From a virus, in the IMG/VR virus record IMGVR_UViG_3300028666_000026, positions 64,001 to 105,391 of that record: 41,391 nt of DNA, one strand, 5' to 3'. Both the position numbers and the translations under genes were made by a program. Shown here one piece after another: positions 19,877-35,941 of the stretch (position 1 is its first letter; the number at the start of each line of letters is the position of its first letter). The notes under the pieces were generated by a model, which had not been told where the DNA came from, ran no database searches, and was given only the letters and a program-made list of their open reading frames with translations.

Positions 19877-19942
19877 GTGAAAATACTGTTGAAGTGTGCG
19901 CTGCTGAGTGTACTCTGCCTTCTCCCTACTACAGTTGTGGCC
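19877..19942 (+). other. Predicted Sec signal peptide (VVA-QT)
   Basis: MKILLK n-region, Leu-rich h-region, AXA cleavage motif. Confidence 0.5.
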
Positions 19943-22900
19943 CAGACTTGGCGTTCATTAGCCACGGCTCGTGGGTTCACAATGGGTTGCGGCGACACGG
20001 ATCCATCCATTTTCAATAGTGATGGCACATTCAACGGTCTGGTTGCGGCTCAGTGTAACAGTATAGAGCCTGGTAATGTCATGAAGCAAAATGCGATGGA
20101 GCCGTCCAATGGTGGCTACGACTTCTCGCAAGCTGATTTGGTAATGAACTATGCGGCGGCCAACTCGCAGTCAGTCACGGCGACCGCTCCAGTTTGGGAT
20201 AATGCTAGTTATGGAGGAGGCACTCCTTCATGGGTTTCTGGCCTGAGTTCTGGCGCGCTGACGACGGCGCTGCAGAATTACGTTAATCAGTTCATGACCC
20301 ACATGCACACCAATTATCCTGGTCGCATGAAACAGATAGCACTTGTAAGCGAGGCCAGCCATCAGTGTCCCAATGGCAGCTATAATCCCGGCTATGGAAC
20401 TGGACCTTACTGCTCTATACTAGGTCCTGATACGTCTTCTGGTTCCTACGCTTCGCATGTATCTGGTTTAACCTACTTCCCTGAATACGTCACTGTGGCT
20501 TACACTCAGGCACGTGCCAGCGATCCCACTGCGCAACTCTGCTACGATGACTGGGGCTGGGAGGGTAGCGGCGCAAGTGGCTATCAGTACTGGCTGGTTG
20601 CGTATCTTAAACATCTGGGACTTGTAGACTGTGTTGGCTTGGAAGGTCAATGGCAGTATAACGCGATTCCCACCAATGTGCCATCAACTGGTTCAATTTC
20701 CTCAACTATCAGTGCGTACCAGGCTCTTGGTGTCACCGTTTACTTCTCACAAGTTCAGTTGGGCATACACACAAATGGCACCAACAATAACGTGCCAAAC
20801 ACTTACACGTCAACAGTGCCTGCCGACCTTACTACGCAAGCTAGTACATACTCTGCACTTCTCGGAGCTTGTCTAGCCAACACGACGGCCTGCAATGCTT
20901 TCTATGTGTGGGGCATATCGGATAAGTGGGCATTCATTGATGCGCCATCACCCTACGGAGTTGGCGCACCGCAGCCGTATGACGCTTCGTACAATCCAAA
21001 AGCGGCGTACACTGCAATCCAGACGGCATTGGCTTCGGGTGGCGGCACTACCTATGCACTCTCGACTGCCACCACAGGAAGCGGAACTGGAACTGTCACA
21101 GGGTGCGCTGGCAACTATGCGGCATCGGTTGCATACTCATGCACAGTGACTCCAACAGGCGGCTCGACTTTATCCAGCGTTACAGGGTGCGGAGGGTCAG
21201 GAACCACCACCTACTCTGGCTCCATGCCGGCTTCGGCCTGCACAGTTACAGCCACTTTCTCTTCTGCCGGCTGTACTGCCAGCAGAACCGCAGCCAGTCT
21301 GAATCCTTCAGACGTGTTGGCCGCGCTGAACGCCGTCAATTGCCCGACGTCCACCGTCAGTCTACCTGCTGGGCATGTGGCTTGGTCCTCTGCCATTGCC
21401 TACACAATGCCGTCAGTGATCACTAGCTTGACATTGCAGGGCGCCACTACGCTGGCCTGCACCGGCACGCCTGCAACATCGGGGTACAGTTGCACTCCTA
21501 CAGACAACACCATCATTGAGGACGCGTACCTCTCCAACACTTCACTCATTACGCTTTACTTGACCAACTCGGCCACTTCTGTCATGCGCATTACAGGCAT
21601 AACAATGCAGGGCGGCAGTGCTGGCGGCAATTCCAAGTATAACGGGTTGATTGATGTGTACAGTGGCTCGCTGCAACTGCGCTACGACCACGATCACTGC
21701 AACATGTCCACGTACTCGCCTACTAGTACGGCGTCTGTATGTCTACGCACATTCGGTCCTGTCACTGGCGTTGCAGACCACAACAAAATTGAGCTGGCTC
21801 CGAACTCTGGCGGATTCCCGACACTGCAGACCTTCTCCTTCGGCTTCTCCATATTTGGCGCATACAACGACTCCATTGGCAACGGCGATGGCACGTTCTC
21901 GCATCCTACGCCTTGGGGCTCACTCACGTCGTTCTATGTGGAGTCCAACGTATTCATAGGCGGATACACAAATGACTGCGGCGGCGCTGGAGCCATGGTC
22001 ATTCGCAATAACAATACACAGGGCAGTTACACGCAGACACACGGCACCAAGTCTGCAGCTGGTCCCGATCGTGGATGCCGCATGTACGAGGCATACCATA
22101 ACTACATCACCGGACCCACATCCGGCATAGGTCCGCTGGATGCTGTGTTCGGCTCGAAGAACGCGACTGCAATGATCTGGGGTAACACGCTGGTGAACGG
22201 CTTCTACCGCTACACCAACTTGTGCACGGATCGTAACTCCTGCGAAACGCCGGAGACTGCGCCACCAAATGGTTGGGGTTACTGCGGCACGGTTCATGGC
22301 GGGTCTGACTCAGCTTGGGACGGCAATAATAATGTCGGCTCTGGTTGGCCCTGCCTGGACGGTATCGGACGCGGTCAGGATACACAGGCTCTCAATGGGC
22401 AGGCGTTCCCAGGTAGACTAAATTCCATCACTGGCACAGTGGCGTGGTCACACCAGTATCTGGAGCCAATGTACTTCTTCATGAACTCGGGTACGCCACA
22501 AGCCGGTGTATTCGCCGAAGTAGGTTCTACCGATACCACAAACAATCGCGACTTCTACGCTGATTGCTCGGCTAGCAATGCTGGCTGCACAGGAGCATTT
22601 ACTGGCGCAGCTGGTACTGGCTACGGTCTGCTAAGCGCACGTCCGTCAACCTGCACAGCAGGTCCTGGCGGCACATATGCTACCAGTCCCACGGGCAGTT
22701 ATGGCGTAGCGTACTTCGCGACTGATGTGAATGGCGGCTTGGGCGGTCTGTATGTTTGCACAGCTACCAACACCTGGTCGTCTACGTACATCTACACGCC
22801 AGCCGCATATCCGCATCCACTCGCAGGCGGCACGCCGCAAGTCAACACGCCCACGGCCACTCCTATTGCGCCATACACTGGCACAGCAACCACTGTTGCG

Positions 22901-24439
22901 CTGGCTGACACCACACCTTCTGCCGCTATATGCTACACAGTAGACGGCTCCACACCCACCGCGCCCACACCGGGCACCTGCTCTGGCGGCACCACGGCGC
23001 TGTACACCACACCAATCAGTGTGTCGTCCACCACCACCATCAACGCTATTGGCACGCTTGCGGCATATCTGAATAGCGCGCAGTTCAGCGGCCTGTACAC
23101 CATTAGTGGCTCGTCTGTCTGCGGTGATCCTACCCAGAATGGTCCCAATTACTCGGGCACTTACAACGTGCCGCCGACAACGTTGCCGCTGGCCGTTGGC
23201 TTTACTTCGCCCACTGCTGGATGCGTCATGCATTACACGGCAACCACGGACGGCTCCACACCAGCTGCACCAACTTGCGGCGATACGACGTATCCTGGCG
23301 GCGGGTTCTCAATTACGTCAGGTGGCACGTATATCTGGCGTACTATCGCCTGCCAAGGCGGATACACCAGCTCAAACATCATAGGCGGCACCTGGACAGT
23401 TTCTGCACCAATACCAGCTTCGTTGACCGTTACAGTGAATGGCACTGGCAGCGGGTCAGTAAGTAGTTGCCCGTTGGGAACCTCAGCACCCACCGTTGGC
23501 TCGTCTGTAACATGCGCAGGCGCGCCTGCTGCCGGGTCCATGGTGACTTCGTCCGGTACTGGTAGTGCTGGCGCTTGCACTGGTGGCGGCTGTACGTTCA
23601 CTTTCAATGTCACTTCGACACTGACATATACATTCATTGCGCAAGCCTCGCCACCACTCATCACGCCGTCCACCGGCACATACACTGGAGTGCAGACTGT
23701 GTCCATGACTGACTCCACACCAGGCGCGGTTATGCGCTACACGCTTGACGGCTCAACACCCACCGCAGGCTCCACTCTGTACAGCGGTTCGTTCTCGGTG
23801 TCGGTCTCTACCACTGTACGCGCCATAGCTATTGCCAGCGGATACACGAACAGCGGCGTGGGGCAGTCTGTCATCACCATCAACTCCACATGCGGCAATC
23901 CAACTCAACTTGGGCCTAACTTTTCGGGTCCGTACAGCTCGCCACCTACCACGCTGCCAATATCTATCGGCTACACTTCGCCGACGGTTGGCTGCAACAT
24001 GTTCATGACGTTGGACAGCAGCACACCCACGTGTCTCAGCACTGCGTATGCTGGGCAGTCAATTTCCGTTACCACTACGATGAAGGTTTTGGCTTGTCAG
24101 GCAGGGTACACTTCGTCTGCTGTGCAAAGCGGAACTTGGTCTATTAACCCACCGGCGGTCACACCATTGTTCTCGCCAGTTACGGGTACGTATTCTGGCG
24201 GCACAAGCGTTAGCATTTCCACCGCAACGTTGGGCTGCAGTGCGTACATTTATTGGGCTACGCACACTCCGCCTACTACTGGTGACAATCATGGCATAAC
24301 CTTCTTCATGACGACTCCGGGCACTTACTATGCCAAGGTTATCAGTTGTCCTGGGTATACCGATTCGTCGGTTGGTTTTGCTACGTACTCTATACCGGGC
24401 GCACCTGCACTACTCATCGCTGTACCAGCAATTGAATGA
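19877..24439 (+). CDS. 1520-aa secreted multi-domain glycanase-like protein: Sec signal peptide, GH10-like (beta/alpha)8 domain, parallel beta-helix-like middle region, about six C-terminal beta-sandwich (CHB_HEX_C/Fn3-like) modules
   Basis: GTG start with GAGGA SD. N-terminus MKILLKCALLSVLCLLPTTVVA-QT. GH10 motifs: NSIEPGNVMKQNAMEPSNGGYDFSQADLVMNYAAAN, LVSEA, AYTQARASDPTAQLCYDDWG, VDCVGLEGQWQ. Repeated TPT...YT(L/V)DGSTPT modules. Confidence 0.6.
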   Translation: MKILLKCALLSVLCLLPTTVVAQTWRSLATARGFTMGCGDTDPSIFNSDGTFNGLVAAQCNSIEPGNVMKQNAMEPSNGGYDFSQADLVMNYAAANSQSVTATAPVWDNASYGGGTPSWVSGLSSGALTTALQNYVNQFMTHMHTNYPGRMKQIALVSEASHQCPNGSYNPGYGTGPYCSILGPDTSSGSYASHVSGLTYFPEYVTVAYTQARASDPTAQLCYDDWGWEGSGASGYQYWLVAYLKHLGLVDCVGLEGQWQYNAIPTNVPSTGSISSTISAYQALGVTVYFSQVQLGIHTNGTNNNVPNTYTSTVPADLTTQASTYSALLGACLANTTACNAFYVWGISDKWAFIDAPSPYGVGAPQPYDASYNPKAAYTAIQTALASGGGTTYALSTATTGSGTGTVTGCAGNYAASVAYSCTVTPTGGSTLSSVTGCGGSGTTTYSGSMPASACTVTATFSSAGCTASRTAASLNPSDVLAALNAVNCPTSTVSLPAGHVAWSSAIAYTMPSVITSLTLQGATTLACTGTPATSGYSCTPTDNTIIEDAYLSNTSLITLYLTNSATSVMRITGITMQGGSAGGNSKYNGLIDVYSGSLQLRYDHDHCNMSTYSPTSTASVCLRTFGPVTGVADHNKIELAPNSGGFPTLQTFSFGFSIFGAYNDSIGNGDGTFSHPTPWGSLTSFYVESNVFIGGYTNDCGGAGAMVIRNNNTQGSYTQTHGTKSAAGPDRGCRMYEAYHNYITGPTSGIGPLDAVFGSKNATAMIWGNTLVNGFYRYTNLCTDRNSCETPETAPPNGWGYCGTVHGGSDSAWDGNNNVGSGWPCLDGIGRGQDTQALNGQAFPGRLNSITGTVAWSHQYLEPMYFFMNSGTPQAGVFAEVGSTDTTNNRDFYADCSASNAGCTGAFTGAAGTGYGLLSARPSTCTAGPGGTYATSPTGSYGVAYFATDVNGGLGGLYVCTATNTWSSTYIYTPAAYPHPLAGGTPQVNTPTATPIAPYTGTATTVALADTTPSAAICYTVDGSTPTAPTPGTCSGGTTALYTTPISVSSTTTINAIGTLAAYLNSAQFSGLYTISGSSVCGDPTQNGPNYSGTYNVPPTTLPLAVGFTSPTAGCVMHYTATTDGSTPAAPTCGDTTYPGGGFSITSGGTYIWRTIACQGGYTSSNIIGGTWTVSAPIPASLTVTVNGTGSGSVSSCPLGTSAPTVGSSVTCAGAPAAGSMVTSSGTGSAGACTGGGCTFTFNVTSTLTYTFIAQASPPLITPSTGTYTGVQTVSMTDSTPGAVMRYTLDGSTPTAGSTLYSGSFSVSVSTTVRAIAIASGYTNSGVGQSVITINSTCGNPTQLGPNFSGPYSSPPTTLPISIGYTSPTVGCNMFMTLDSSTPTCLSTAYAGQSISVTTTMKVLACQAGYTSSAVQSGTWSINPPAVTPLFSPVTGTYSGGTSVSISTATLGCSAYIYWATHTPPTTGDNHGITFFMTTPGTYYAKVISCPGYTDSSVGFATYSIPGAPALLIAVPAIE
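22850..24400 (+). repeat. In-frame tandem array of about six 80-95-aa beta-sandwich modules inside the 1520-aa gene. Two CGxPTQxGPN(Y/F)SG modules alternate with TGTYTG...DGSTPT modules
   Basis: Repeated peptide motifs read directly in the translation. These are protein-coding repeats, not a CRISPR array. Confidence 0.5.
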
Positions 24440-27125: not shown

Positions 27126-27635
27126 ATGGCAGACTTCCAGTCGTGCTTCGCATTTATGATGGCCAACGAGGACAGTGCTAACCTTCACGCACAAGTGTCT
27201 GATGCTTGTCCGCCTGGTGTGGCTGGTCCTTGTTGGGCCATCAGTGGGATTAACAGTGGCGTGTATCCTACGCAGTTCTCTGTGCTGGCTGCCGCGCCGC
27301 AAAGTGCACGTGGGCCGCTGGTAGAAGTCTTCTACAAGACGTACATCTGGGACCGATGGTTTGGTGCGGCCACTTCTACAGATTTGATGATGCGGGTGTT
27401 CGACTGCACAGTGAATCTTGGTGAGCGCAAAGCCGTTCGACTGCTGCAGCAGTCAGTACCAGACAGCTCGCTAGTACCTGACGGTCTTTGGGGTCCGGTA
27501 ACGCTGGCAGCTGTGAATGCAGCTGACCCGGTGGCTACACTGACGGCCTTCAAGGCCGCGCGCCGAGAGCACTACTTACTCAATGATGCCAATAACCCTG
27601 CTCTGTCAGCATTACTGATCAGAGCAGCTAAGTAG
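27126..27635 (+). CDS. Endolysin: GH108-type muramidase N-domain with C-terminal PG_binding_3 domain
   Basis: C-terminal RVFDCTVNLGERKAVRLLQQ...VPDGLWGPVTLAAVNAADPVATLTAFKAARREHY matches the PG_binding_3 pattern, which normally accompanies GH108. Last gene of the late operon. Confidence 0.5.
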   Translation: MADFQSCFAFMMANEDSANLHAQVSDACPPGVAGPCWAISGINSGVYPTQFSVLAAAPQSARGPLVEVFYKTYIWDRWFGAATSTDLMMRVFDCTVNLGERKAVRLLQQSVPDSSLVPDGLWGPVTLAAVNAADPVATLTAFKAARREHYLLNDANNPALSALLIRAAK

Positions 27636-27671
27636 AAGAGCCCACTGCCCAATACGGGCGGTGGGCTCTTC
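27635..27671. terminator. Strong hairpin (perfect 11-bp stem GAAGAGCCCAC/GTGGGCTCTTC, 15-nt loop with inner GCCC/GGGC pairing) between convergent operons; probable bidirectional terminator
   Basis: Seen in sequence directly after the endolysin stop and just downstream of the minus-strand DUF3310 gene. Weak U-tracts on both sides. Confidence 0.5.
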
Positions 27672-27689: not shown

Positions 27690-28016
27690 TTAATGCTCGC
27701 GCAGCCGGAGCTTCGCAGGTGGCGGTGGCGGCTCGCGCAGTGCAGGGCCGGGCAACTTCAGCACAGCGTCCAGCTTGTCCAGGAAGCTGCGCGCTTTGGC
27801 CAAGTCCTCCAGGCCATTCTTCTGCAACCACCGAATGACGTAGCGACATATCTGCGCTTCCAGGTATGGCATGCGAGCAAATAAATCCCAGTGTTGAATT
27901 TCTCCGCCGCAGTGCGGGCATTGACCTGCACAGTTGGAGTAGTGTGACCCGCCCACCTGTGCCACCACGGCTGTATTGGCTCCCACTACGCGCACTGATT
28001 TCTTTAAGATGGGCAT
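27690..28016 (-). CDS. DUF3310-like protein (GGSHY motif)
   Basis: GGAGAAG SD. Motifs GGSHY, WDLFA, YVIRWLQKNGLEDLAKARSFL are typical of phage DUF3310 proteins. Confidence 0.5.
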   Translation of the reverse strand: MPILKKSVRVVGANTAVVAQVGGSHYSNCAGQCPHCGGEIQHWDLFARMPYLEAQICRYVIRWLQKNGLEDLAKARSFLDKLDAVLKLPGPALREPPPPPAKLRLREH

Positions 28017-28597
28017 ACAGACTTCTCCATTCTGTTGATTAGTGGTAACAACATGTCGCTGTCAGCGATCATCGCACACTCTCGCATCAAGCGTATGGCT
28101 GCCAATTGTGTGCCCTTGCGCAGCACACAATAGTTGACGCTAAATTGAGGTTGCAAATATTCGCACAAAATACGCAGTATGCGCACGCCGTCTCTGTTGC
28201 CCAACATGGCCTGCCTGGCACAATGTACAGCAGCTGCAATTGTGTCGCTGATAGTCAAAATTTGCCTCTGCGCCTCGAGTAAAGGCGTGTTGCCGAATTG
28301 TAGTTTTTGAAACCTGAATCTTGCTTCGGCTTCGTTCAACTCAGTGAGTAACTCCTTGGACAGTACCTTCTTTACCGGAGCTGGCAAATCGCCGGACCAA
28401 TACTCACCAAGGTCGTGTCGCAGCGCTTCGCGCACGAGGTAGTAGCGCTCGCTTATTGTCAGCTCTTCAGTTTCTGCAAAGTAGTCTGACAACAAAGCCA
28501 CTACCGCGCTGTGGTGTCCGTCTGTTTCATCGCCTATTTGCGGCTCTGTGTGCCAGCGCCGTACGCCTACTGCGCGCATTAAACTATCAACATTCAT
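28004..28597 (-). CDS. HD-domain phosphohydrolase (YfbR-like dNMP/dNTP phosphohydrolase), 197 aa
   Basis: ATG at 28597 overlaps the upstream TGA (ATGA). Motifs RRWHT, DGHHSAV and RHDLGEYWSGD give an H...HD...D metal-binding pattern. Confidence 0.55.
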   Translation of the reverse strand: MNVDSLMRAVGVRRWHTEPQIGDETDGHHSAVVALLSDYFAETEELTISERYYLVREALRHDLGEYWSGDLPAPVKKVLSKELLTELNEAEARFRFQKLQFGNTPLLEAQRQILTISDTIAAAVHCARQAMLGNRDGVRILRILCEYLQPQFSVNYCVLRKGTQLAAIRLMRECAMIADSDMLLPLINRMEKSVCPS

Positions 28598-29655
28598 TTT
28601 GTTCTCCGACTCACCCACTCTTGGCACGCACGCTTCCAGTCCGGCGCATCGATACCGTCCAGACACACGCCCATACTATGCTTGTCTTTCCACTTGCGAT
28701 ATGTCCAGGCAAGAAATACAGGCACCACTACTGCGTGCATAAATGGCGTCTTTAAATCCGGCACGTTCAGCGCTATGGGTTCCTGCGCAGTGGAGCGTAT
28801 CACGGCGCGCGCCCAAGGCATAAATCGGCCCAGGTCAGCGTCGAACCCAGGCTCCAGGGCTGGGCCCAATTCTGGCAATGCACCCAGGGTGTCGCACTCG
28901 TGAATGATTTGGTCTATCTTTTCTGCGCCAAACACACCAGTGTACAAGTGGAAGTTATTGCTGAATTGTCTGTACGTGCCAATAGGCACGCCCACACGCA
29001 TAGCCATGTACTCCTGTAGAAAGCTGAAGTGCACAGCATTGGCACCGTAACAGCCCCATACAATATCATTGCTGCGGTTGCAGACAGTGATGTTGAGCGC
29101 GCCGCCGCGACAATCCACGTAGGCGTGCGTATTGCATGGCACGTCCAGGCCGCCATGTGTGGCCACGTAGAAGTCTGACGCATCCATGTCGCCTACTTTC
29201 GGCAGGACGCTCAGGCCCACTAACTCCGGGTCAGGCACTGCGTTCCACATCGCCAGTACGCAGCGCCGGGAAGCCGGATTCTTCTGCAGCTCCGCCACAA
29301 TGCCTTCCAACTGATCCCACCCAAAGAAACTGCGCCAGCGCCAGCCGTAGGCGCCCCAGCTGGTGATGCCGTCATCGCTGTATTCGCGCATTTGCTTGGC
29401 GAAAAACTCAACAAATTCCACGTCATTGGCACCGCTGAGCATCCACAGCGACTCCATCAGATGGAAGAAAGGGTTGGCATCACGTGTGGGACTGAACAGC
29501 ACGCGGCTGCGTGGGTTGGTGTACTCGGTGCACACAGGACCAGGTGCCACTAGCACTGGGCCGTTGCGACTTTGTTCTTCTACGCCTGCGTGGCGTAGAT
29601 ACTCCAGGCCATATTGCAACGCTTGGTTTACGTCGTCCGTTTGAAAGCTGTACAT
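28594..29655 (-). CDS. Thymidylate synthase-family enzyme (dUMP-binding; candidate dUMP hydroxymethylase or divergent ThyA), 353 aa with ~60-aa C-terminal extension
   Basis: AAGGAGAA SD at ATG 29655. Alignable to E. coli ThyA: ESLWMLSGANDV (ELLWFLQGDTN), YGWRWR, NPASRRCVLAMWN, PCN (PCH catalytic Cys), RSND (RSCD), Asn kept in GANAVHF (PFNIASY), NFHLY (DTHLY). Confidence 0.75.
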   Translation of the reverse strand: MYSFQTDDVNQALQYGLEYLRHAGVEEQSRNGPVLVAPGPVCTEYTNPRSRVLFSPTRDANPFFHLMESLWMLSGANDVEFVEFFAKQMREYSDDGITSWGAYGWRWRSFFGWDQLEGIVAELQKNPASRRCVLAMWNAVPDPELVGLSVLPKVGDMDASDFYVATHGGLDVPCNTHAYVDCRGGALNITVCNRSNDIVWGCYGANAVHFSFLQEYMAMRVGVPIGTYRQFSNNFHLYTGVFGAEKIDQIIHECDTLGALPELGPALEPGFDADLGRFMPWARAVIRSTAQEPIALNVPDLKTPFMHAVVVPVFLAWTYRKWKDKHSMGVCLDGIDAPDWKRACQEWVSRRTK

Positions 29656-29699
29656 CTGTTCTCCTTGCTTACAGGGGTTGAGAGTGCCCACCCTTAATT

Positions 29700-30584
29700 T
29701 TACCGCGCCGCGTAGGGCTCCGCGCTAGGGTTGAAGTTCTGGCGCGGTCTACCTTCTCCACCACGTGTGCGCATGTATTTGTCAAACTCGCACAAGCAAT
29801 TTTGTAGGTTCTGCGCATCCAGACTACGCAATTCCTTGGGCAACTTGGGCAACACGTGACCACGTAGTGCCAACAATGCGCTGTGCCACTCTTGTGGTTG
29901 CCACGGAGCAGTAAGGTCTTGCCCCATGGCGCGGTTAAGTCCACGTTGTGAGCCTGGACCTGGCGCTGCGAACGTTTCCCAATCCACAGCATTGACCAAC
30001 GGCGGCACCCACTTCACGTCTGCCACCACTTGTGCGGCAAGAAAGCTGCCCATGCCGTAGTGAGATTGCAGCCAAGTGTGAAACTCTTGTAGCGTACCTT
30101 TCAGTGGAGTTTGCTTCTTAGCAGCCCACAATGGATTGAGTACGTACTTGGCTAGGTAGTCAGCTTTGGTCTCTCCATCTTTTGCTTCTATGGCGCGAAT
30201 CATGTAGGCCGAAGTCCAGGTCTTTTCACCGCGCCCTTTACGCCTGTTCATTACGCTTGTGAACTTTTTCGGACTCCACTCTACATGTTTGCCGGCAAAT
30301 ACAGCGTTAGGCATCTCATGCAGAGATTCTGGTAAGTTCACCAATCTTGCTACTGTCATGGCAAACCAAACATTTTTGTCGTGTGTGTGCGGCAGCAGCC
30401 ACTCCTTGTGGATCCATTGCGTGACACGGTCGTCCTCACGCCTGACATTGCAGAATCTGTACCGACGCAATATAGGGTCTTTTGTCCACGGCGACGGTTG
30501 ACCAGCGCAGCGCTTGGTGTGAATGCTCCAGCGTTCTGATATGAACGCGACAAATTCCTTCAGCAGTGGAAACTGTGCACTCAC
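29700..30584 (-). CDS. Hypothetical protein in the DNA-modification operon (294 aa); candidate base-modification transferase (aGPT-pyrophosphorylase-like by context only)
   Basis: GTG start with GGAGG SD, GTGA overlap with the GNAT stop. Embedded between the ThyA-like and GNAT genes. No motif I can confidently assign. Confidence 0.3.
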   Translation of the reverse strand: MSAQFPLLKEFVAFISERWSIHTKRCAGQPSPWTKDPILRRYRFCNVRREDDRVTQWIHKEWLLPHTHDKNVWFAMTVARLVNLPESLHEMPNAVFAGKHVEWSPKKFTSVMNRRKGRGEKTWTSAYMIRAIEAKDGETKADYLAKYVLNPLWAAKKQTPLKGTLQEFHTWLQSHYGMGSFLAAQVVADVKWVPPLVNAVDWETFAAPGPGSQRGLNRAMGQDLTAPWQPQEWHSALLALRGHVLPKLPKELRSLDAQNLQNCLCEFDKYMRTRGGEGRPRQNFNPSAEPYAAR

Positions 30585-31060
30585 TTGGCGGCCTCCAACA
30601 TCAATCTCCAGTACGGCACCTTGGCGCTGTTCTGTCCTTCACCCACTACTTTGAAACCCAGCTTTTTGTAGAACCTCAATCCCTGCACATTCTCCTTCTC
30701 AGAGATCAGCTCGAGCAATCCATTTGGCGAAGTTTTCATTGCGTGTTGTAACAATGCACTGCCTATGCCCTTGCGCGGTACAGAAGTGCCCACATAGTAC
30801 ACAGAAGTGTGTGGACGTTCGTAGTAGCGCAAGAATTTGTCGTAGTAAATATCAGGCTTGTGCGGTTTGCGCACGCAGTGATGCACGCATAAGAAGCCAA
30901 CAATCTTGCCCTTCTGTCGCACCACTGAGACCCAACCGCGCGTGTAGTACTCCTCCACGTTGCCCATGCCAACGCCTGAGAACCCCTTGGTGAACTTGCT
31001 CAAGGCTGACAGCTTGAGTATTTCTTTGTGCTCTGACCACTTAGCTTTTTCGATTTTCAT
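30581..31060 (-). CDS. GNAT-family N-acetyltransferase (159 aa)
   Basis: ATGA overlap on both ends. Acetyl-CoA binding motif VGTSVPRKGIGSALLQHAM and motif B RFYKKLGFK. Confidence 0.6.
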   Translation of the reverse strand: MKIEKAKWSEHKEILKLSALSKFTKGFSGVGMGNVEEYYTRGWVSVVRQKGKIVGFLCVHHCVRKPHKPDIYYDKFLRYYERPHTSVYYVGTSVPRKGIGSALLQHAMKTSPNGLLELISEKENVQGLRFYKKLGFKVVGEGQNSAKVPYWRLMLEAAK

Positions 31061-31467
31061 GCTATCAACCAAGGATGTTCTTTGGAGCGTCTGAAGTCCC
31101 ACTTCTTACCGTCGTAGTAGCGCACAAATAAGTATCTGATGCGACCCATTAAGTGCGTATGCTCCAACTCTCTGCCAAATCTTTCCGCGTACCACTTGAA
31201 CATGTGTGGGTATTGTTCGCGAGCGAATAACATAGCAGGCTCGTACACTTCCCTGCCAAATAGTTTTGATCTGGCAGCTAGCAGCTTAGTGTCGCCTTGA
31301 AAGAATTTCATTTTCACATGATCATAAAATTCTTGGAACTCTGGTTTGAACTTATACAGCCAAGGGCCTTTGTTAGTTTGATGACTTGTGCCCTTCTTTC
31401 TACTGTGCATGTGCGTCACGCCAGTGTTGTGCAACACCGTTTGAGGTGCTCCGCCTGCCTTCGTCAT
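31057..31467 (-). CDS. Hypothetical protein (136 aa) in the modification operon
   Basis: ATG at 31467 overlaps the P-loop kinase stop (ATGA), and its own stop overlaps the GNAT start. Confidence 0.4.
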   Translation of the reverse strand: MTKAGGAPQTVLHNTGVTHMHSRKKGTSHQTNKGPWLYKFKPEFQEFYDHVKMKFFQGDTKLLAARSKLFGREVYEPAMLFAREQYPHMFKWYAERFGRELEHTHLMGRIRYLFVRYYDGKKWDFRRSKEHPWLIA

Positions 31468-32027
31468 GCTTTCTCCTTCCCAAGTAGTACCTTCATAAAA
31501 TCCCTCGTAGCCGTCTTGTGTTTCAGCGTCACGCATCGCAAGCCCAGATCTTCTAGCTTTGGCCTGCTTACTTCTACTGCATGATGTTTGACAGCTGTGT
31601 TCTTCGGATCCAGTGGGCGCGTGTCACCCTTGGCAGCGCGGCGCTGGCGAATACGGTATAGGCACACCTCGAGCGGCGTGTCCAGGAAGCACACTACGCA
31701 GCTCTTCTTACGCGCTGCCATGGCGCGGCCTATATTACCTACCGACGAGCTCACCAGCGCGCCCTCGAAGAGCACGTGGCCTCTGATGGCGTATGCTTCG
31801 ACGCGCGGCCAGATCAAGTCGTAGGGCTGTATCGCGTCGCAACCGCCACACTGTGTGGCGTAGGGTCCGACGACGAACAATGGTTTCGACAAGCCAGGTA
31901 TTGTCACCTTGTAGCCTTCTGGACGCTCAGGCCTCGGGCCTATCGGCGCGCTGACATACTTCTTCAAGATATCTTGCACAATGGTGCTCTTGCCAGAGCC
32001 ATGTGTGCCCCTCACATTCAAAATCAT
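31464..32027 (-). CDS. P-loop kinase (187 aa; candidate 5-hydroxymethyl-dU DNA kinase-like)
   Basis: Walker A GTHGSGKST 8 residues from the N-terminus. ATGA overlaps at both ends. Context with ThyA-like, HD and amidotransferase genes. Confidence 0.5.
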   Translation of the reverse strand: MILNVRGTHGSGKSTIVQDILKKYVSAPIGPRPERPEGYKVTIPGLSKPLFVVGPYATQCGGCDAIQPYDLIWPRVEAYAIRGHVLFEGALVSSSVGNIGRAMAARKKSCVVCFLDTPLEVCLYRIRQRRAAKGDTRPLDPKNTAVKHHAVEVSRPKLEDLGLRCVTLKHKTATRDFMKVLLGKEKA

Positions 32028-33886
32028 TTGATCAACCCTCTCTGCACAATAGGCCACAGCCCAATCATGCGCCCGGTATCGCGTAGTACATGTTCCTTAG
32101 ACTTGTCCACCTTCGTACGCGGTGGGGTCGCCAACTCACCCAGATATTCTGGAATGATGTTCTCGTGCCTGAATTGATACAGCACATTCCAATCAATACC
32201 AGACGTGATGGGCGCGTCTCGCATTTGGTTGATCTCGTTGGCCATGCGATCGAGATAGTACGGCAGGTATCTACCCTTAGTGGGCCTGAAGAACCCTTTG
32301 TAGGCGCACAGGCATGACTCCATGAACCAGTGATCCATGCCCAGCTTGGGGTACTCACGTTGGATTTCTGTGAGTAGCTTCTCACCTTCGCCCAGCAGCC
32401 AATCCCATTCTTCCGGCAGCAGCTCCGCTTCCTTAACCTGCTGCACATCAGTGGCGTGCAAGTTCAAGGCGTATGCCAGTCCTGTGCGTGAGCTTTGTGC
32501 TTCACGTAGGAACATAGTGTCAGCCTTGATGGGCATACCCATGCAGCGGTGCAAGGCTTCCGTGTAGATATACGTGGCGTAGCGACCAAAGTGCCAAAGT
32601 GTGCGCAACTTTGCCTCCACCACACGAAAGCGTTCTTCGTCTGTCTTGCCATGCTTGAGCAGCTGCGCGAAAAACTCCTCCTGCGCCGTTGGCGTCTGCC
32701 CGCCCACTGTGTCACGGTAGCTCTCGAACATTTCTACAAAGTGACCCTTCTCATATTTGCGATCAGTGTTGTAGGCTAGCGCACGCCAATTAGCTTTGTG
32801 CCATTTGTCCAGCCGCTTCAGATCGACTTTTTCAAACTCTGGAAATTCCTGCATGACGTAGAACACAGAACCTGGGTGGTAGAACGTGCCATACAAAAAG
32901 CAAGCCCAATACTCCTGAGATTTGGAAAGTTCGTAGCGTCTGAACAAGTAGTTCATCAGTGGGTAGTTGGGATCAATCTCCCAACTGGCAATTGCCGCAA
33001 CGCAATACTGCTTGAAGGACTGGCGCAGGCGTTTGCGATGATCCGCTTGTTTGTACTTTGTCGTGTCCAGCTCTAGCGGAGCTTTGGGCTTCTTGGCTGT
33101 AAGCATCAAGCGGTTCTGGATGCTGGGTCTGGGGAAGCGTACTTCCGAAGGCTGGGCGTACTTCAGCCGGGATAGCTCCTGAGCTCCCGAGGCGGTTAGG
33201 CCGTACTCGGTGTACGGTTCGGCTTCCCACAGCTCCAAACCTCCCGCGAGCGGCTCGCCCAGGCCCTCCAGCGCCCGTAGGACGATGTCTCGAGTAGAGG
33301 CGAAGCCGGTAAGGCTCAGGGCCTTGCTGCGGAACAGCCAGAGGGGCCGGATGTGGTCGCGTATGGCCGTGACCCGGCCTTGGTCGTCGAGGAAGCCACA
33401 GGCGAAGATAGGCGGTTGTACGGTGTATATCCGGTCGAACGCGCTCGAGAGGCTTCCTCGCGCTGCCAATACACGTCGGAGGATCACCTCGGTATCGTTT
33501 GCCGAGGTAGTTTTCACGTCGTAGGCGGCTTCGTACGTCTTCTGGTCTGCCATGGAAACTAGGCCGTTGTGAACCACGGCCAATTTGCTCGTCGCCACGG
33601 GCTGATTGTTTGCGTTGTCCTGCCAGTCACCACTGGTTGAGTACCGGGTGTGGCCTATCGCCTGCATCGGGGTACTGCGCCGCAGTGCATCCCAGGCAGC
33701 GCCGCTGACCAATTCCCAAGCGGGTATCGGTGCTTTAAGTGTGCGTACTTTACCGTTGGCAATCCAAGAAGCGCCGGAAGCGTGCATACCGCGCACTCGG
33801 CTTTCCTCCATCAGCTTGGTAAAGAACTCGAAGGCAACAGGCGCGTGCGCCCGTTTACCTACTACGTATCCAACAATGCCACACAT
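32024..33886 (-). CDS. Fusion protein: N-terminal class-II (Ntn) glutamine amidotransferase domain plus ~400-aa unrecognised C-terminal domain (620 aa)
   Basis: AAGGAGAA SD 4 nt before the ATG. N-terminus M-CGIVGY (Cys nucleophile). GlmS/AsnB-like motifs RYSTSGDWQDNANNQP and VVHNGLV...NDTEVIL. No PP-loop SGGxDS motif in the C-terminal part. Confidence 0.7.
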   Translation of the reverse strand: MCGIVGYVVGKRAHAPVAFEFFTKLMEESRVRGMHASGASWIANGKVRTLKAPIPAWELVSGAAWDALRRSTPMQAIGHTRYSTSGDWQDNANNQPVATSKLAVVHNGLVSMADQKTYEAAYDVKTTSANDTEVILRRVLAARGSLSSAFDRIYTVQPPIFACGFLDDQGRVTAIRDHIRPLWLFRSKALSLTGFASTRDIVLRALEGLGEPLAGGLELWEAEPYTEYGLTASGAQELSRLKYAQPSEVRFPRPSIQNRLMLTAKKPKAPLELDTTKYKQADHRKRLRQSFKQYCVAAIASWEIDPNYPLMNYLFRRYELSKSQEYWACFLYGTFYHPGSVFYVMQEFPEFEKVDLKRLDKWHKANWRALAYNTDRKYEKGHFVEMFESYRDTVGGQTPTAQEEFFAQLLKHGKTDEERFRVVEAKLRTLWHFGRYATYIYTEALHRCMGMPIKADTMFLREAQSSRTGLAYALNLHATDVQQVKEAELLPEEWDWLLGEGEKLLTEIQREYPKLGMDHWFMESCLCAYKGFFRPTKGRYLPYYLDRMANEINQMRDAPITSGIDWNVLYQFRHENIIPEYLGELATPPRTKVDKSKEHVLRDTGRMIGLWPIVQRGLIK

Positions 33887-33904
33887 GTATTCTCCTTGCA
33901 ACAA

Positions 33905-33935
33905 AACCGCCAGCCCGATACAGCGGCTGGCGGTT
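33905..33935 (-). terminator. Intrinsic terminator hairpin (perfect 11-bp stem AACCGCCAGCC/GGCTGGCGGTT, 9-nt loop) followed on the minus strand by UUUUGUUG
   Basis: Seen in sequence 30 nt downstream of the 658-aa gene stop and immediately upstream of the modification operon. Confidence 0.5.
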
Positions 33936-33964
33936 CTTTGATCGAATTTGTTGCCCTTGTGCTA

Positions 33965-35941
33965 CTAGCTCAACTTGATGTGCGCCGGTGCGTTGCCGTG
34001 CGGCTCGCTGGCCCACTTGATGAAGTACACCGCTTCGTACACGTCGCTCTTCGCCTTCTCCAGTGCCTTCTTGAAAGCGCCCACGGTGTCGGACTTGCGC
34101 AGGATAGCGAAGGAATTGAAAGCCTTGGTGCCTTCGCGGTACGGGTTGCCGTCGGTGCGACCCTCGACTGTTTTCGTAACCAGCTTGATGGTCATTTCGT
34201 CAGCGTAGGTACGGCGGGTGCTTTCGCGTGCGGCCTTCTTGGCCTTGGGTGCCTTCTCGGCTTTGGCAGACTTGGCGGCAGACTTCTTAGCAGGCGGCGC
34301 AAACTTCGGTGTCTTCGTAACGGTTTCGTTTGCCATGGGAATCAGCTCCTTGCAGTGTAGCACTGCGGTTAAGTGCCTTGCGGCAGCTGGCGTTACTGGT
34401 ACAGACGGAACCATTGGATTCAGTAACTGGTTTGCAGCCGCGATCAGGTCAACTTCGCCCGGCACAGGCCGCAGGTTTCTCAGAGTCTTTGTTGGAACAA
34501 CGCCTACAGCAACCCTGACACCATTATTATATACGCAAATTGCGCCCTGTGAGTTTTCACGCTCCAATTGCATCATTACAAGGCCGTTTTTCGGGTCTTG
34601 GAGGAGCCCGATATCGCCCGGTACTAGCTCCACCTCGGCGTCAGGGCGGGGAGCCGCGATAACCTCTGGAGTGACTGCGAGAGCGTATATCTCGCGCTTG
34701 GCAGCATCCTCCTGAGCCTTACGCTCCTTGTTGCTGAGCGGCTTGGCTACGCTCAGGACTTTACCCGGTACGGTGCGATCCAGCTTCGTGGACTGTAAAG
34801 CCTGCTCAAGTAGCTTGCGCTCCGCCCTGGTGTTGGCCGTCTTTATTTTGCGTATAGCTGCGCAGATAGTTTTGCAGCGATCAGCGAATGTCGTCGCGCG
34901 CGCCGCAGCAGACTTGCCTTCCGCACCCACAGCACTGTAGAAAGCCTGTGTCAAATTACCTATTGTGCATTCTTTGGCAAGTACACGATCACGGTTGAAC
35001 AAATTCTTCAGCAGTGCCATGCGCTTGCCGTAGTATTTGTCACCGCGTAGCAGATCCAGATTGTAGTTCTGCAGTGTCAACCCACCCAGCATTTCCACTG
35101 CGCGTACTACGTTAGCTGGCACGCCGTTGACAGCAGGCTTGGTCAGCACAGTCGCACGAGCGGAGGCTATGTCAGCCACTGTCATACCTTCTGTGCCCTC
35201 CAGTGCGAGTTCTGCGGCCTTCGCTGCTCTGGCCAATCTATGGGCCGCTTTATTCAGCGCTGTCTTGGACGTTTGCATGAGCGCGAGCTTGAGGTCTATC
35301 AGCTTGACGCCTGCCAGACGCGCGGCTTCCGGCGGTGGCGCTGGCGTTTCGGCAGGCAGCTTGATGGCCCAGTTTTCTTCAGTACCCGCAACATTGTGTG
35401 AGTACAGCGCGCCGCGTCCGTCCTTGTGTTGGTAGCCGTGCGCGTAGCCGAAGCCGGGTACTTCCTGCGTCATGACAAAGCTGAACTCCGCCTTGCGAAT
35501 GGCCTGTATCATGGGCCGATCTTTGGGTGGCTTGGGTAGCTCGACAACCTTAGCGGACGGCTTCTTCTTGCCAGCCTTCGCTGCGAGCGCGGTCAACTTC
35601 TCCGCAGCAGGCTCTTCCTCAGCAGGCTCTTCGACAATGCTGTGTAGCTCGTGGTTGGCGGGGTTGAAGCATACCGCGCACTTCGTGGACTTGCCGGCGC
35701 TCTTCGCGTAGGCATGCGGTCTGAGCTCTTCGTCGCCGGGCAGGTTTGTGGGTTCTTTGAATACGGCAGTCTTGACGGGCTGCGCTTCTGCTTCCCGCGC
35801 ATAATCCAGGATGGTCTTGATAACGCGCTGCGGCGCTGGCTGCTTTGCCAAAGTCGTTTCTCTGACGACGGCGGTAGCTGCGGTGGCTGCGGTCTTGGCG
35901 GTCTTGCTGCCGGTGGACTTCTTTGCTGTTCCTTGCTTCAT
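33965..35941 (-). CDS. Large Lys/Ala-rich protein (658 aa) with histone-H1-like AKK/AAK repeats at both termini; putative DNA-binding protein
   Basis: AAAGGAGCG SD. N-terminus MKQGTAKKSTGSKTAKTAATAATA. C-terminal AKKSAAKSAKAEKAPKAKKAARE. Central region unassigned. Confidence 0.5.
   Translation of the reverse strand: MKQGTAKKSTGSKTAKTAATAATAVVRETTLAKQPAPQRVIKTILDYAREAEAQPVKTAVFKEPTNLPGDEELRPHAYAKSAGKSTKCAVCFNPANHELHSIVEEPAEEEPAAEKLTALAAKAGKKKPSAKVVELPKPPKDRPMIQAIRKAEFSFVMTQEVPGFGYAHGYQHKDGRGALYSHNVAGTEENWAIKLPAETPAPPPEAARLAGVKLIDLKLALMQTSKTALNKAAHRLARAAKAAELALEGTEGMTVADIASARATVLTKPAVNGVPANVVRAVEMLGGLTLQNYNLDLLRGDKYYGKRMALLKNLFNRDRVLAKECTIGNLTQAFYSAVGAEGKSAAARATTFADRCKTICAAIRKIKTANTRAERKLLEQALQSTKLDRTVPGKVLSVAKPLSNKERKAQEDAAKREIYALAVTPEVIAAPRPDAEVELVPGDIGLLQDPKNGLVMMQLERENSQGAICVYNNGVRVAVGVVPTKTLRNLRPVPGEVDLIAAANQLLNPMVPSVPVTPAAARHLTAVLHCKELIPMANETVTKTPKFAPPAKKSAAKSAKAEKAPKAKKAARESTRRTYADEMTIKLVTKTVEGRTDGNPYREGTKAFNSFAILRKSDTVGAFKKALEKAKSDVYEAVYFIKWASEPHGNAPAHIKLS

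Follow-up and report, generated by a model that had tools for sequence, protein, structure and literature searches.

A phage operon pairing a glutamine amidotransferase-AADT fusion with a PaMx11-type acetyltransferase: a predicted amidotransferase route to 5-acetylaminomethyl-deoxyuridine

Thymidine hypermodifications shield phage DNA from nucleases, restriction enzymes included, and the enzymes involved are in use as DNA-derivatising tools. One such pathway, the synthesis of 5-acetylaminomethyl-deoxyuridine (5-AcNmdU) in phage PaMx11, has been reconstituted with the four enzymes gp49, gp46, gp47 and gp48 (Lee et al. 2021, PMC8989533). Here gp49 is a 5-hydroxymethyl-deoxyuridine (5-hmdU) DNA kinase, gp46 is a glycine:DNA transferase, gp47 is a flavin adenine dinucleotide (FAD) lyase that gives 5-aminomethyl-deoxyuridine (5-NmdU), and gp48 acetylates 5-NmdU, not glycinyl-thymidine (PMC8989533). 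We have analyzed an operon of eight genes, g8 to g1, carried by a 41,391-nucleotide stretch of viral DNA (positions 64,001 to 105,391 of IMG/VR record IMGVR_UViG_3300028666_000026; hereafter the window), and are highly confident that it is a thymidine hypermodification cassette of the 5-hmdU kinase/amino acid:DNA transferase (AADT) kind. Its first gene encodes a glutamine amidotransferase (GATase) fused to an AADT, and the cassette would arrive at the PaMx11 product without glycine and without an FAD lyase.

Six of the eight genes (g7, g5, g4, g3, g2 and g1) have homologues in the PaMx11 gp46-gp53 cluster, the last four (g4, g3, g2, g1) in the PaMx11 order, and the cassette is bracketed by terminators both here and in the annotated PaMx11 cluster. 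The AADT of g8 shares Pfam family and fold with gp46, and 5-AcNmdU is the predicted end product here too. The two systems differ in that the AADT is here fused to an Ntn GATase and is devoid of the gp46 residues Trp146 and Lys150, and in that the operon contains an additional ORFan, g6; moreover, PaMx11 is a 60-kb Pseudomonas siphovirus, whereas the present virus is a ~105-kb myovirus from a metagenome. When we searched the window and the adjoining 10 kb (locus L083), neither tblastn nor hidden Markov models (HMMs) matched a gp47-like FAD lyase, and no pyridoxal phosphate (PLP), radical S-adenosylmethionine (SAM) or FAD tailoring enzyme was found in these two regions. The operon thus holds the elements of a 5-hmdU hypermodification cluster (Lee et al. 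2018, 2021), namely a predicted 5-hmdU source (g3), a P-loop kinase (g7) and an AADT with catalytic Cys and Glu (g8); from the PaMx11-type pathway it has the acetyltransferase (g5), and lacks the glycine-site residues and the FAD lyase.

The protein encoded by g8 (33886-32024, minus strand, 620 aa) is composed of a class II (Ntn) GATase domain (residues 2 to ~240; Pfam GATase_6, 1.2e-9) and an AADT domain (residues ~290-620; Pfam ADDT, PF18724, formerly aGPT-Pplase2, 3.1e-21). An AAGGAG ribosome-binding site (RBS) precedes its ATG and the protein begins with M-C-G-I-V-G, the Met-Cys N-terminus being found in all 27 homologues whose N-terminus is complete. The full architecture is present in ~60 metagenomic proteins (35-65% identity), none of which is named. 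In an alignment of 28 homologues, Cys2, Arg81 (within HTRYSTSG), His106-Asn107-Gly108 and Asp131-x-Glu133 show little or no variation, and they match the positions of the class II nucleophile and of the glutamine-carboxylate, oxyanion-hole and alpha-amino-binding residues. Profile searches against the PDB returned PurF (3e-12) and GlmS (4e-9), and the active-site residues align with those of PurF. The AlphaFold (AF2) model of g8 (pLDDT 93, pTM 0.92) superposes its N-terminal domain on the glutaminase domain of GlmS (1xff) with TM scores of 0.71-0.74; PurF was also matched. On the strength of conserved residues and fold, the N-terminal domain is predicted to be a catalytically intact Ntn GATase of alpha-beta-beta-alpha fold, and its position ahead of the acceptor domain in the model would be compatible with a putative ammonia channel.

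As in g8, PurF and GlmS combine an N-terminal Cys nucleophile and a glutamine site made up of Arg (Arg73), Asn-Gly and Asp with the same fold, and an acceptor domain follows at the C-terminus. The PurF reaction, in which a phosphoryl leaving group (pyrophosphate) on an activated carbon gives way to NH3, is parallel to the step that we propose for g8. Unlike those of PurF and GlmS, the acceptor domain of g8 is all-helical and of a DNA base-flipping kind, and it would act on a base within duplex DNA. In the literature searched, we found no described amidotransferase with DNA or another nucleic-acid polymer as acceptor.

Foldseek searches with the full-length g8 model listed GATases only, and the C-terminal domain was therefore modelled (pLDDT 95) and searched apart. 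The sole meaningful PDB matches were two structures of PaMx11 gp46 (8z2m and 8z2n; probability 1.0, TM 0.62-0.65). The C-terminal half of g8 and gp46 fall in one Pfam family, yet they have diverged beyond the reach of BLASTP, and an hhalign comparison of the fusion alignment with the single gp46 sequence (probability 0.5%) was too weak to trust. The pocket was thus compared by MAFFT alignment of the fusion C-domains with gp46, M6 gp51, PhiW-14 gp109 and Det7 gp175, and by hmmalign of 76 AADTs, including 65 that are GATase-linked (fused or adjacent) and nine that are FAD- or PLP-linked.

In gp46, Cys247 attacks C6, Glu243 and Thr244 form a metal site, and Asp24 lies in the pocket, while glycine is bound, via its carboxylate and its amine, by Trp146 and Lys150 (Wen et al. 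2024, PMC11472151). The catalytic residues of g8 (D305, E523, S524 and C527) are conserved, and D24, E243, T244 and C247 of gp46 are each kept in 64-65 of the 65 GATase-linked AADTs; indeed, Asp24, Gly144, Glu243, Thr/Ser244, Cys247 and Lys250 are conserved across all AADT classes. The glycine-binding pair Trp146 and Lys150, on the other hand, is present in 9/9 FAD- or PLP-linked AADTs versus 0/65 GATase-linked ones. The latter carry Phe or Tyr at position 146 and mostly Ile, Leu or Val at position 150 (Asn, Tyr or Phe in seven of them), the equivalents in g8 being Tyr436 and Ile440. Since Trp146 and Lys150 are exchanged and the catalytic residues are retained, the catalytic machinery appears to have been kept, with a glycine site that is now largely hydrophobic; such a pocket, as read from the alignment, would suit a small uncharged nucleophile. 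In addition, Pro145 of gp46 is replaced by Arg in 63 of the 65 GATase-linked AADTs. The serine-transferring ViI/Det7 type has this residue (Arg435 in g8) in common with the GATase-linked AADTs, among which it is all but invariant.

Scanning viral contigs, we obtained 70 loci in which a GATase and an AADT are fused or adjacent. Plain tblastn missed divergent kinases and GNATs at these loci, and co-occurrence was thus re-evaluated with small HMMs on the locus ORFs. In this screen a gp47-like FAD enzyme was found at none of the 70 loci, and a gp48-type GNAT was found in the window and at L002, L012, L030 and L040/L041. The seven other gp48-type GNAT loci that were examined (L079-L082 and L164-L166), which were collected by protein search and context look-ups after a pattern scan of viral contigs for GNAT relatives gave four loci, all carry a standalone ADDT and an FAD/DAO enzyme, and no GATase. 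Across these ~75 loci, GATase-linked and FAD-lyase-linked AADTs are thus mutually exclusive, and the gp48-type GNAT goes with either. Because this acetyltransferase occurs with two alternative modules, both are most simply read as delivering 5-NmdU. One of the seven, L165 (7839-10768), has a PaMx11-type cassette (ADDT, DAO, GNAT, HMUDK_hel) in which the ThyA-like gene is preceded by an insertion of phosphoribosyl pyrophosphate synthetase-like and NAPRTase/NAMPT-like genes.

The closest relatives of the operon (L002, L167 and L168, on contigs of 27-106 kb, with L167 on that of 106 kb) have the core of the window cassette minus g6, in the order unknown large protein, GATase-AADT, kinase, GNAT, HMUDK_hel, ThyA-like, HD and small protein. 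Two of them carry a Methyltransf_21-like gene (weak Pfam match) between GNAT and HMUDK_hel (13845-14555 in L002, 7456-8172 in L168), which may provide an extra tailoring step, such as methylation, in those phages. On the 190-kb viral contig of L041 (9386-11619), the trio of GNAT, GATase and AADT is unfused, each with a gene of its own next to the others; the AADT is 32% identical, and kinase, HMUDK_hel and ThyA-like genes lie nearby. GATase and AADT genes are split in most of the distant GATase/AADT loci.

A related module occurs in the ParB-dependent T-dioxygenase clusters (PMC13229309; bioRxiv 10.1101/2025.08.14.668559), which share GATase, AADT and kinase with the window, and whose AADTs have the same signature of Phe/Tyr and mostly Ile/Leu/Val as g8. 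In those clusters 5-hmU arises by post-replicative Tet/JBP oxidation of T, and GATase and AADT are for the most part encoded individually, whereas here a predicted dUMP hydroxymethylase would act before replication, and a single fused protein combines the two domains and is coupled to an acetyltransferase. An example of the cluster type described in PMC13229309 is L022 (8968-12088 and 15726-16556), a minimal set of Tet_JBP, GATase, AADT and P-loop kinase that has no other tailoring enzyme and lies close to a ParB-like gene; its GATase/AADT module is fed by post-replicative oxidation of T and not by a dUMP hydroxymethylase. GATases or amidotransferases are mentioned in the published surveys merely as co-occurring genes, with neither function nor product (PMC13229309, bioRxiv 10.1101/2025.08.14.668559, PMC8989533). 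The 5-NedU cluster of Pseudomonas phage M6 (gp51-gp59) is related through its kinase (gp54), HMUDK_hel (gp55) and hydroxymethylase (gp58), and follows the same logic from 5-hmdU to 5-phosphomethyl-deoxyuridine (5-PmdU); M6 then tailors glycinyl-thymidine by means of a radical-SAM isomerase and a PLP decarboxylase, neither of which was found in the window or in L083.

The remaining enzymes of the operon fit this picture. The acetyltransferase g5 (31060-30581, minus strand, 159 aa) matches Pfam Acetyltransf_1/7/10, carries the acetyl-CoA motif RKGIGS and is 35% identical to PaMx11 gp48 (E 1e-25). Among 50,697 phage records, 17 of its 18 near-full-length matches were the acetyltransferase of PaMx11-like Pseudomonas phages; the remaining one, from a Thermocrinis virus, was weak (E 9e-4). 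We thus classify g5, from these similarities, as a gp48-type protein and a predicted 5-NmdU N-acetyltransferase. The P-loop kinase g7 (32027-31464, minus strand, 187 aa) has the Walker A motif GTHGSGKST; its identity is 38% with PaMx11 gp49 (E 8e-28) and, along the entire protein, 27% with M6 gp54 (E 2e-12), which has been validated biochemically. Its match to Pfam HMUDK_HMUD1 is weak (1e-5), and PaMx11 gp49 itself scores 2e-3 on that model; on these matches we regard g7 as a homologue of the phage 5-hmdU DNA kinases (5-HMUDK).

ThyA-family g3 (29655-28594, minus strand, 353 aa) belongs to phrog_5131 (5.6e-105) and is 39% identical to PaMx11 gp51 (E 3e-79) and 42% identical to M6 gp58. Its best relative of solved structure is the CMP hydroxymethylase MilA (7e-18, versus 2e-8 or worse for any thymidylate synthase), and it carries Asn at the position of the Asp that specifies cytosine in MilA. 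It lies below every NCBIfam ThyA equivalog cut-off (at best 61.4 bits versus 174.55; the others 27-47 versus >300), and is best read as a predicted dUMP hydroxymethylase rather than a canonical ThyA. The HD-domain protein g2 (28597-28004, minus strand, 197 aa; PF12917, 6e-10; HD motif in LRHDLGE) resembles YfbR-like 5'-deoxynucleotidases and PaMx11 gp52 (34%, E 2e-7), which suggests a role in depletion of the dTMP pool.

The product of g4 (30584-29700, minus strand, 294 aa) belongs to the HMUDK_hel family (PF18723, 1.7e-44; formerly aGPT-Pplase clade 1) and is 32% identical to PaMx11 gp50 (E 2e-33) and 35% identical to M6 gp55 (E 1e-53). The family of these three proteins is a distant relative of the AADT family (hhalign probability 86%, E 5e-6), and it retains an FG motif and a Cys that aligns with Cys247 of gp46. 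M6 gp55, the orthologue of g4, is dispensable in vitro (PMC8989533), and g4 probably assists the kinase in base flipping or DNA recognition. Two HMUDK_hel paralogues stand in tandem in L164. At the end of the operon, g1 (28016-27690, minus strand, 108 aa) is a small Cys-rich DUF3310-like protein (DUF3310, 1.8e-3; phrog_236, 2.8e-8) that resembles PaMx11 gp53 (28%, E 1e-5), and a g1-like gene holds the same terminal position in L002, L166 and L168.

No match in Pfam, PHROG or NCBIfam was obtained for g6 (31467-31057, minus strand, 136 aa), and only four homologues were retrieved from 1.84 billion representatives, one of them flanked by DNA polA and a PDDEXK nuclease in a different phage (L078). 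It is coupled to its neighbours by 4-nt overlaps on both sides, yet it is absent from the syntenic cassettes L002, L167 and L168, and it shows no similarity to the small ORFs at the equivalent place in L002. This gene is probably an insertion and not a component of the core pathway.

The pathway that we propose would start before replication, with g3 converting dUMP to 5-hmdUMP and g2 helping to clear dTMP, such that the phage polymerase would build 5-hmdU DNA. On the DNA, g7, perhaps with g4, would phosphorylate 5-hmdU to 5-PmdU, as its homologues M6 gp54 and PaMx11 gp49 suggest. The new part of the scheme concerns g8: its Ntn domain would hydrolyse glutamine and pass ammonia to the AADT domain, where Cys527 would attack C6 of the flipped base, the phosphate would leave and NH3 would add to the exocyclic methylene, giving 5-NmdU directly, in one step. 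Finally, g5 would acetylate the amine to 5-AcNmdU. The evidence employed here consists of homologies, conserved catalytic residues, folds and gene-neighbourhood statistics, from which we infer the activities, the ammonia transfer and the product. We hold the complete chain, including the ammonia transfer and the 5-AcNmdU end product, to be somewhat more probable than any departure from it, and on balance favour the view that g8 and its relatives form a new enzyme class, the glutamine-dependent DNA aminotransferases, that would convert 5-phosphomethyl-dU to 5-aminomethyl-dU in duplex DNA.

A preliminary description of this region had already read it as a system of post-replicative hypermodification based on 5-hmdU, and this logic is supported by the assignments of g3, g2, g7, the AADT domain and the GNAT. 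Profile comparison of the ORFs with the 5-hmdU kinase and aGPT-Pplase families likewise returned HMUDK_HMUD1 (weakly), HMUDK_hel and ADDT. Its suggestion that the GATase and GNAT make first an aminomethyl- and then an acetamidomethyl-dU is the reading best supported by the comparative evidence. The accompanying statement that such a product is unlike the described modifications cannot be upheld, as 5-AcNmdU and its precursor 5-aminomethyl-dU have been reconstituted for PaMx11 (PMC8989533). The kind of system and the predicted end product are thus already known, and it is the glutamine-amidotransferase route that is new; no functional characterisation of this route was found in the literature searched.

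Several points weigh against the ammonia route or against its proposed end product. The support comes from sequence and models, on a metagenomic contig, and the FAD-lyase screen spanned ~52 kb of the 105 kb. The GATase-AADT fusion was found in none of the 50,697 phage records. Most GATase/AADT loci are without a GNAT, and acetylation is an add-on, not part of the GATase/AADT module; with just 35% identity between g5 and gp48, the acceptor of g5 could also differ. Furthermore, Arg435 could bind a carboxylate, implying an amino-acid co-substrate, and the structural matches of the N-terminal domain also include EgtC, a pure hydrolase, and similar Ntn hydrolases. These last two observations would be in line with a different use of the same domains, in which the AADT first links an amino acid to the DNA (glutamine, for instance, via the amide or the alpha-amine) and the Ntn domain acts on the adduct as an EgtC-like amidohydrolase; the outcome would be either 5-aminomethyl-dU, hence the same net result, or a glutamyl-type adduct, followed by acetylation by the GNAT. 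The AADTs characterised to date do all use amino acids or polyamines (PMC8989533, PMC13458397), and Arg435 is shared with the serine-transferring Det7/ViI type. Nevertheless, the sequence of the N-terminal domain is nearest to true amidotransferases (by the PurF and GlmS values given above) and keeps the Asp that binds the alpha-amino group of glutamine, the residues that hold glycine in gp46 are lost in 65/65 GATase-linked AADTs in favour of largely hydrophobic ones, and the fixed order of GATase followed by acceptor domain is the classic amidotransferase architecture. An amide nitrogen is, in addition, a poor nucleophile. Attachment followed by trimming thus seems to us quite unlikely.

It is also unlikely, in our estimation, that the GNAT acetylates a different amine, or that g4 or g6 adds a step, so that the operon makes a base not yet described. 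The distance between g5 and gp48 would allow this, g4 is an AADT-like paralogue that retains a candidate catalytic Cys, g6 is a protein without assigned function inside the operon, relatives carry the extra Methyltransf_21-like gene, and surveys stress the combinatorial diversity of such clusters (PMC8989533). However, g4, g3, g2 and g1 have PaMx11 counterparts and hence call for nothing beyond PaMx11 chemistry, g6 is missing from the closest cassettes and elsewhere adjoins a polymerase, the near-full-length matches of g5 are, with one exception in 18, gp48 orthologues, and no PLP, radical-SAM or FAD tailoring enzyme was found in the window or L083. Far less credible still is that the genes serve ordinary nucleotide metabolism, as thymidylate synthase, dNMP kinase, nucleotidase, precursor amidotransferase and unrelated acetyltransferase, with no DNA modification. 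Public phage records do label homologues 'thymidylate synthase', and even 'terminase small subunit', and the kinase matches the 5-HMUDK Pfam model weakly; yet g3 has a hydroxymethylase, not ThyA, as its nearer relative and stays below each ThyA equivalog cut-off, ADDT and HMUDK_hel are domains peculiar to clusters for DNA hypermodification, the homology to a biochemically reconstituted cluster extends gene by gene (PMC8989533), and the GATase has the AADT as its sole acceptor domain. Plain nucleotide salvage was thus rejected on the profile and fold results (ADDT, HMUDK_hel, the g3 cut-offs and the gp46 fold match).

Direct amination by g8 from glutamine-derived ammonia is therefore the reading with which we proceed. 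The operon pairs a GATase-AADT with the one tailoring enzyme of known substrate, the 5-NmdU acetyltransferase, and does so without an FAD lyase; this pairing, together with the absence of the lyase, provides the clearest genomic argument for the GATase as an ammonia supplier. If the reading is true, a single enzyme, together with a kinase, would equip DNA with a primary amine, using glutamine and ATP, with no need for an oxygen-dependent, H2O2-producing lyase step. It would amount to a non-orthologous replacement of the glycine-transferase and FAD-lyase pair, in at least 70 viral contigs and with two sources of 5-hmU, and would explain a module that is widespread in environmental phages. In tRNA, xnm5U is made by two routes to aminomethyl-uracil, either by MnmEG with glycine and then MnmC(o), an FAD lyase, or by MnmEG with ammonium. 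The PaMx11 and g8 routes would mirror these two, by analogy only, as the proteins are unrelated and the one-carbon chemistry is different.

The eight tandem minus-strand ORFs of the operon occupy 27690-33886 of the window, as seen by ORF listing and start-codon inspection, with gene starts refined by means of RBS and the N-termini of homologues. The window corresponds to positions 30479-71869, reversed, of the source contig k141_12260 (European Nucleotide Archive ERZ27245386; 105,390 bp), whose stored gene calls are the same as the refined ones. The eight genes of the preliminary description are thereby borne out, as are, through Pfam and PHROGs, its domain calls (ThyA family, HD, P-loop kinase, Ntn-GATase fusion and GNAT). 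Only one unknown protein, the true ORFan g6, is left of the two it had counted, given that g4 is an HMUDK_hel protein and g1 is DUF3310-like. ATGA overlaps join g8/g7, g7/g6, g6/g5 and g3/g2, and a GTGA overlap joins g5/g4; chaining by stop-start overlaps, which had been claimed for the whole operon, is thus seen at five of the seven junctions; g2 and g1 overlap by 13 nt, and 44 nt separate g4 from g3. The 4-nt overlaps exist but do not set the operon apart: they are seen at 5/7 of its junctions versus 13/32 in the upstream early region of the contig (Fisher p = 0.22), and represent a genome-wide habit. A stoichiometric complex, deduced earlier from the tight translational coupling, was thus rejected, as such overlaps are common across this genome and the coupled g6 is absent from the closest relatives.

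Both ends of the cassette are marked by hairpins. The strong terminator previously noted ahead of the operon is present as an intrinsic-terminator-like hairpin (33899-33936, minus strand) immediately 5' of the g8 RBS, with a 12-bp stem, a CCGCCAGCC/GGCUGGCGG core, a 9-nt loop and a UUUUGUUG tail (dG -31.4 kcal/mol, z -4.05; 0/200 shuffles fold equally well). It ends the preceding gene, gA, and sets the 5' border of the cassette. The 3' border is a strong hairpin (27635-27671, minus strand) between g1 and a convergent endolysin-like gene, with a AAGAGCCCAC...GUGGGCUCUU stem, a GCCC/GGGC stem inside and an imperfect U-tract (dG -34.2, z -5.25; again 0/200 shuffles fold equally well).

Directly upstream of g8, with the terminator between the two, gA (33965-35941, minus strand) is a 658-aa Ala/Lys-rich ORF with no match in Pfam, PHROG or NCBIfam and no recognisable domain. 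It has ~30 metagenomic homologues, none of them named, and also lies directly upstream of the GATase-AADT gene in L002, L167 and L168. On the same strand, ~13 kb upstream, are genes for DNA polymerase A, a DCD-family enzyme, a NUDIX hydrolase, a PDDEXK nuclease and an SNF2 helicase. The first three are clustered at 1853-4922 of contig k141_12260 (L083), outside the window; this group, in which the DCD-family gene is dCTP deaminase/dUTPase-like, could plausibly supply dUMP and remove dTTP or dUTP.

Given that the window also encodes a major head protein, a tail sheath, a baseplate and an endolysin, the virus is a myovirus (~105 kb). Comparison of the region by blastn with the 50,697 phage records gave short matches inside the ThyA-like gene and nothing else, and thus there is no close DNA-level relative in this phage collection. 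A full-length GATase-AADT fusion was found once in 185,579 representative genomes, in a Ca. Sulfotelmatobacter metagenome-assembled genome (L084, DASTCY010000055.1), where it is 41% identical and sits at the end of a 125-kb contig; with this single occurrence, the fusion is essentially a viral or metagenomic protein. This locus may be a prophage or a mis-binned phage, and offers a weak hint of Acidobacteriota hosts. Lastly, a 1520-aa ORF on the plus strand of the window (19877-24439) carries Glyco_hydro_10, CHB_HEX_C and Fn3-associated domains in the precomputed Pfam annotation, and probably specifies a tail fibre or a depolymerase that includes a xylanase-like domain.

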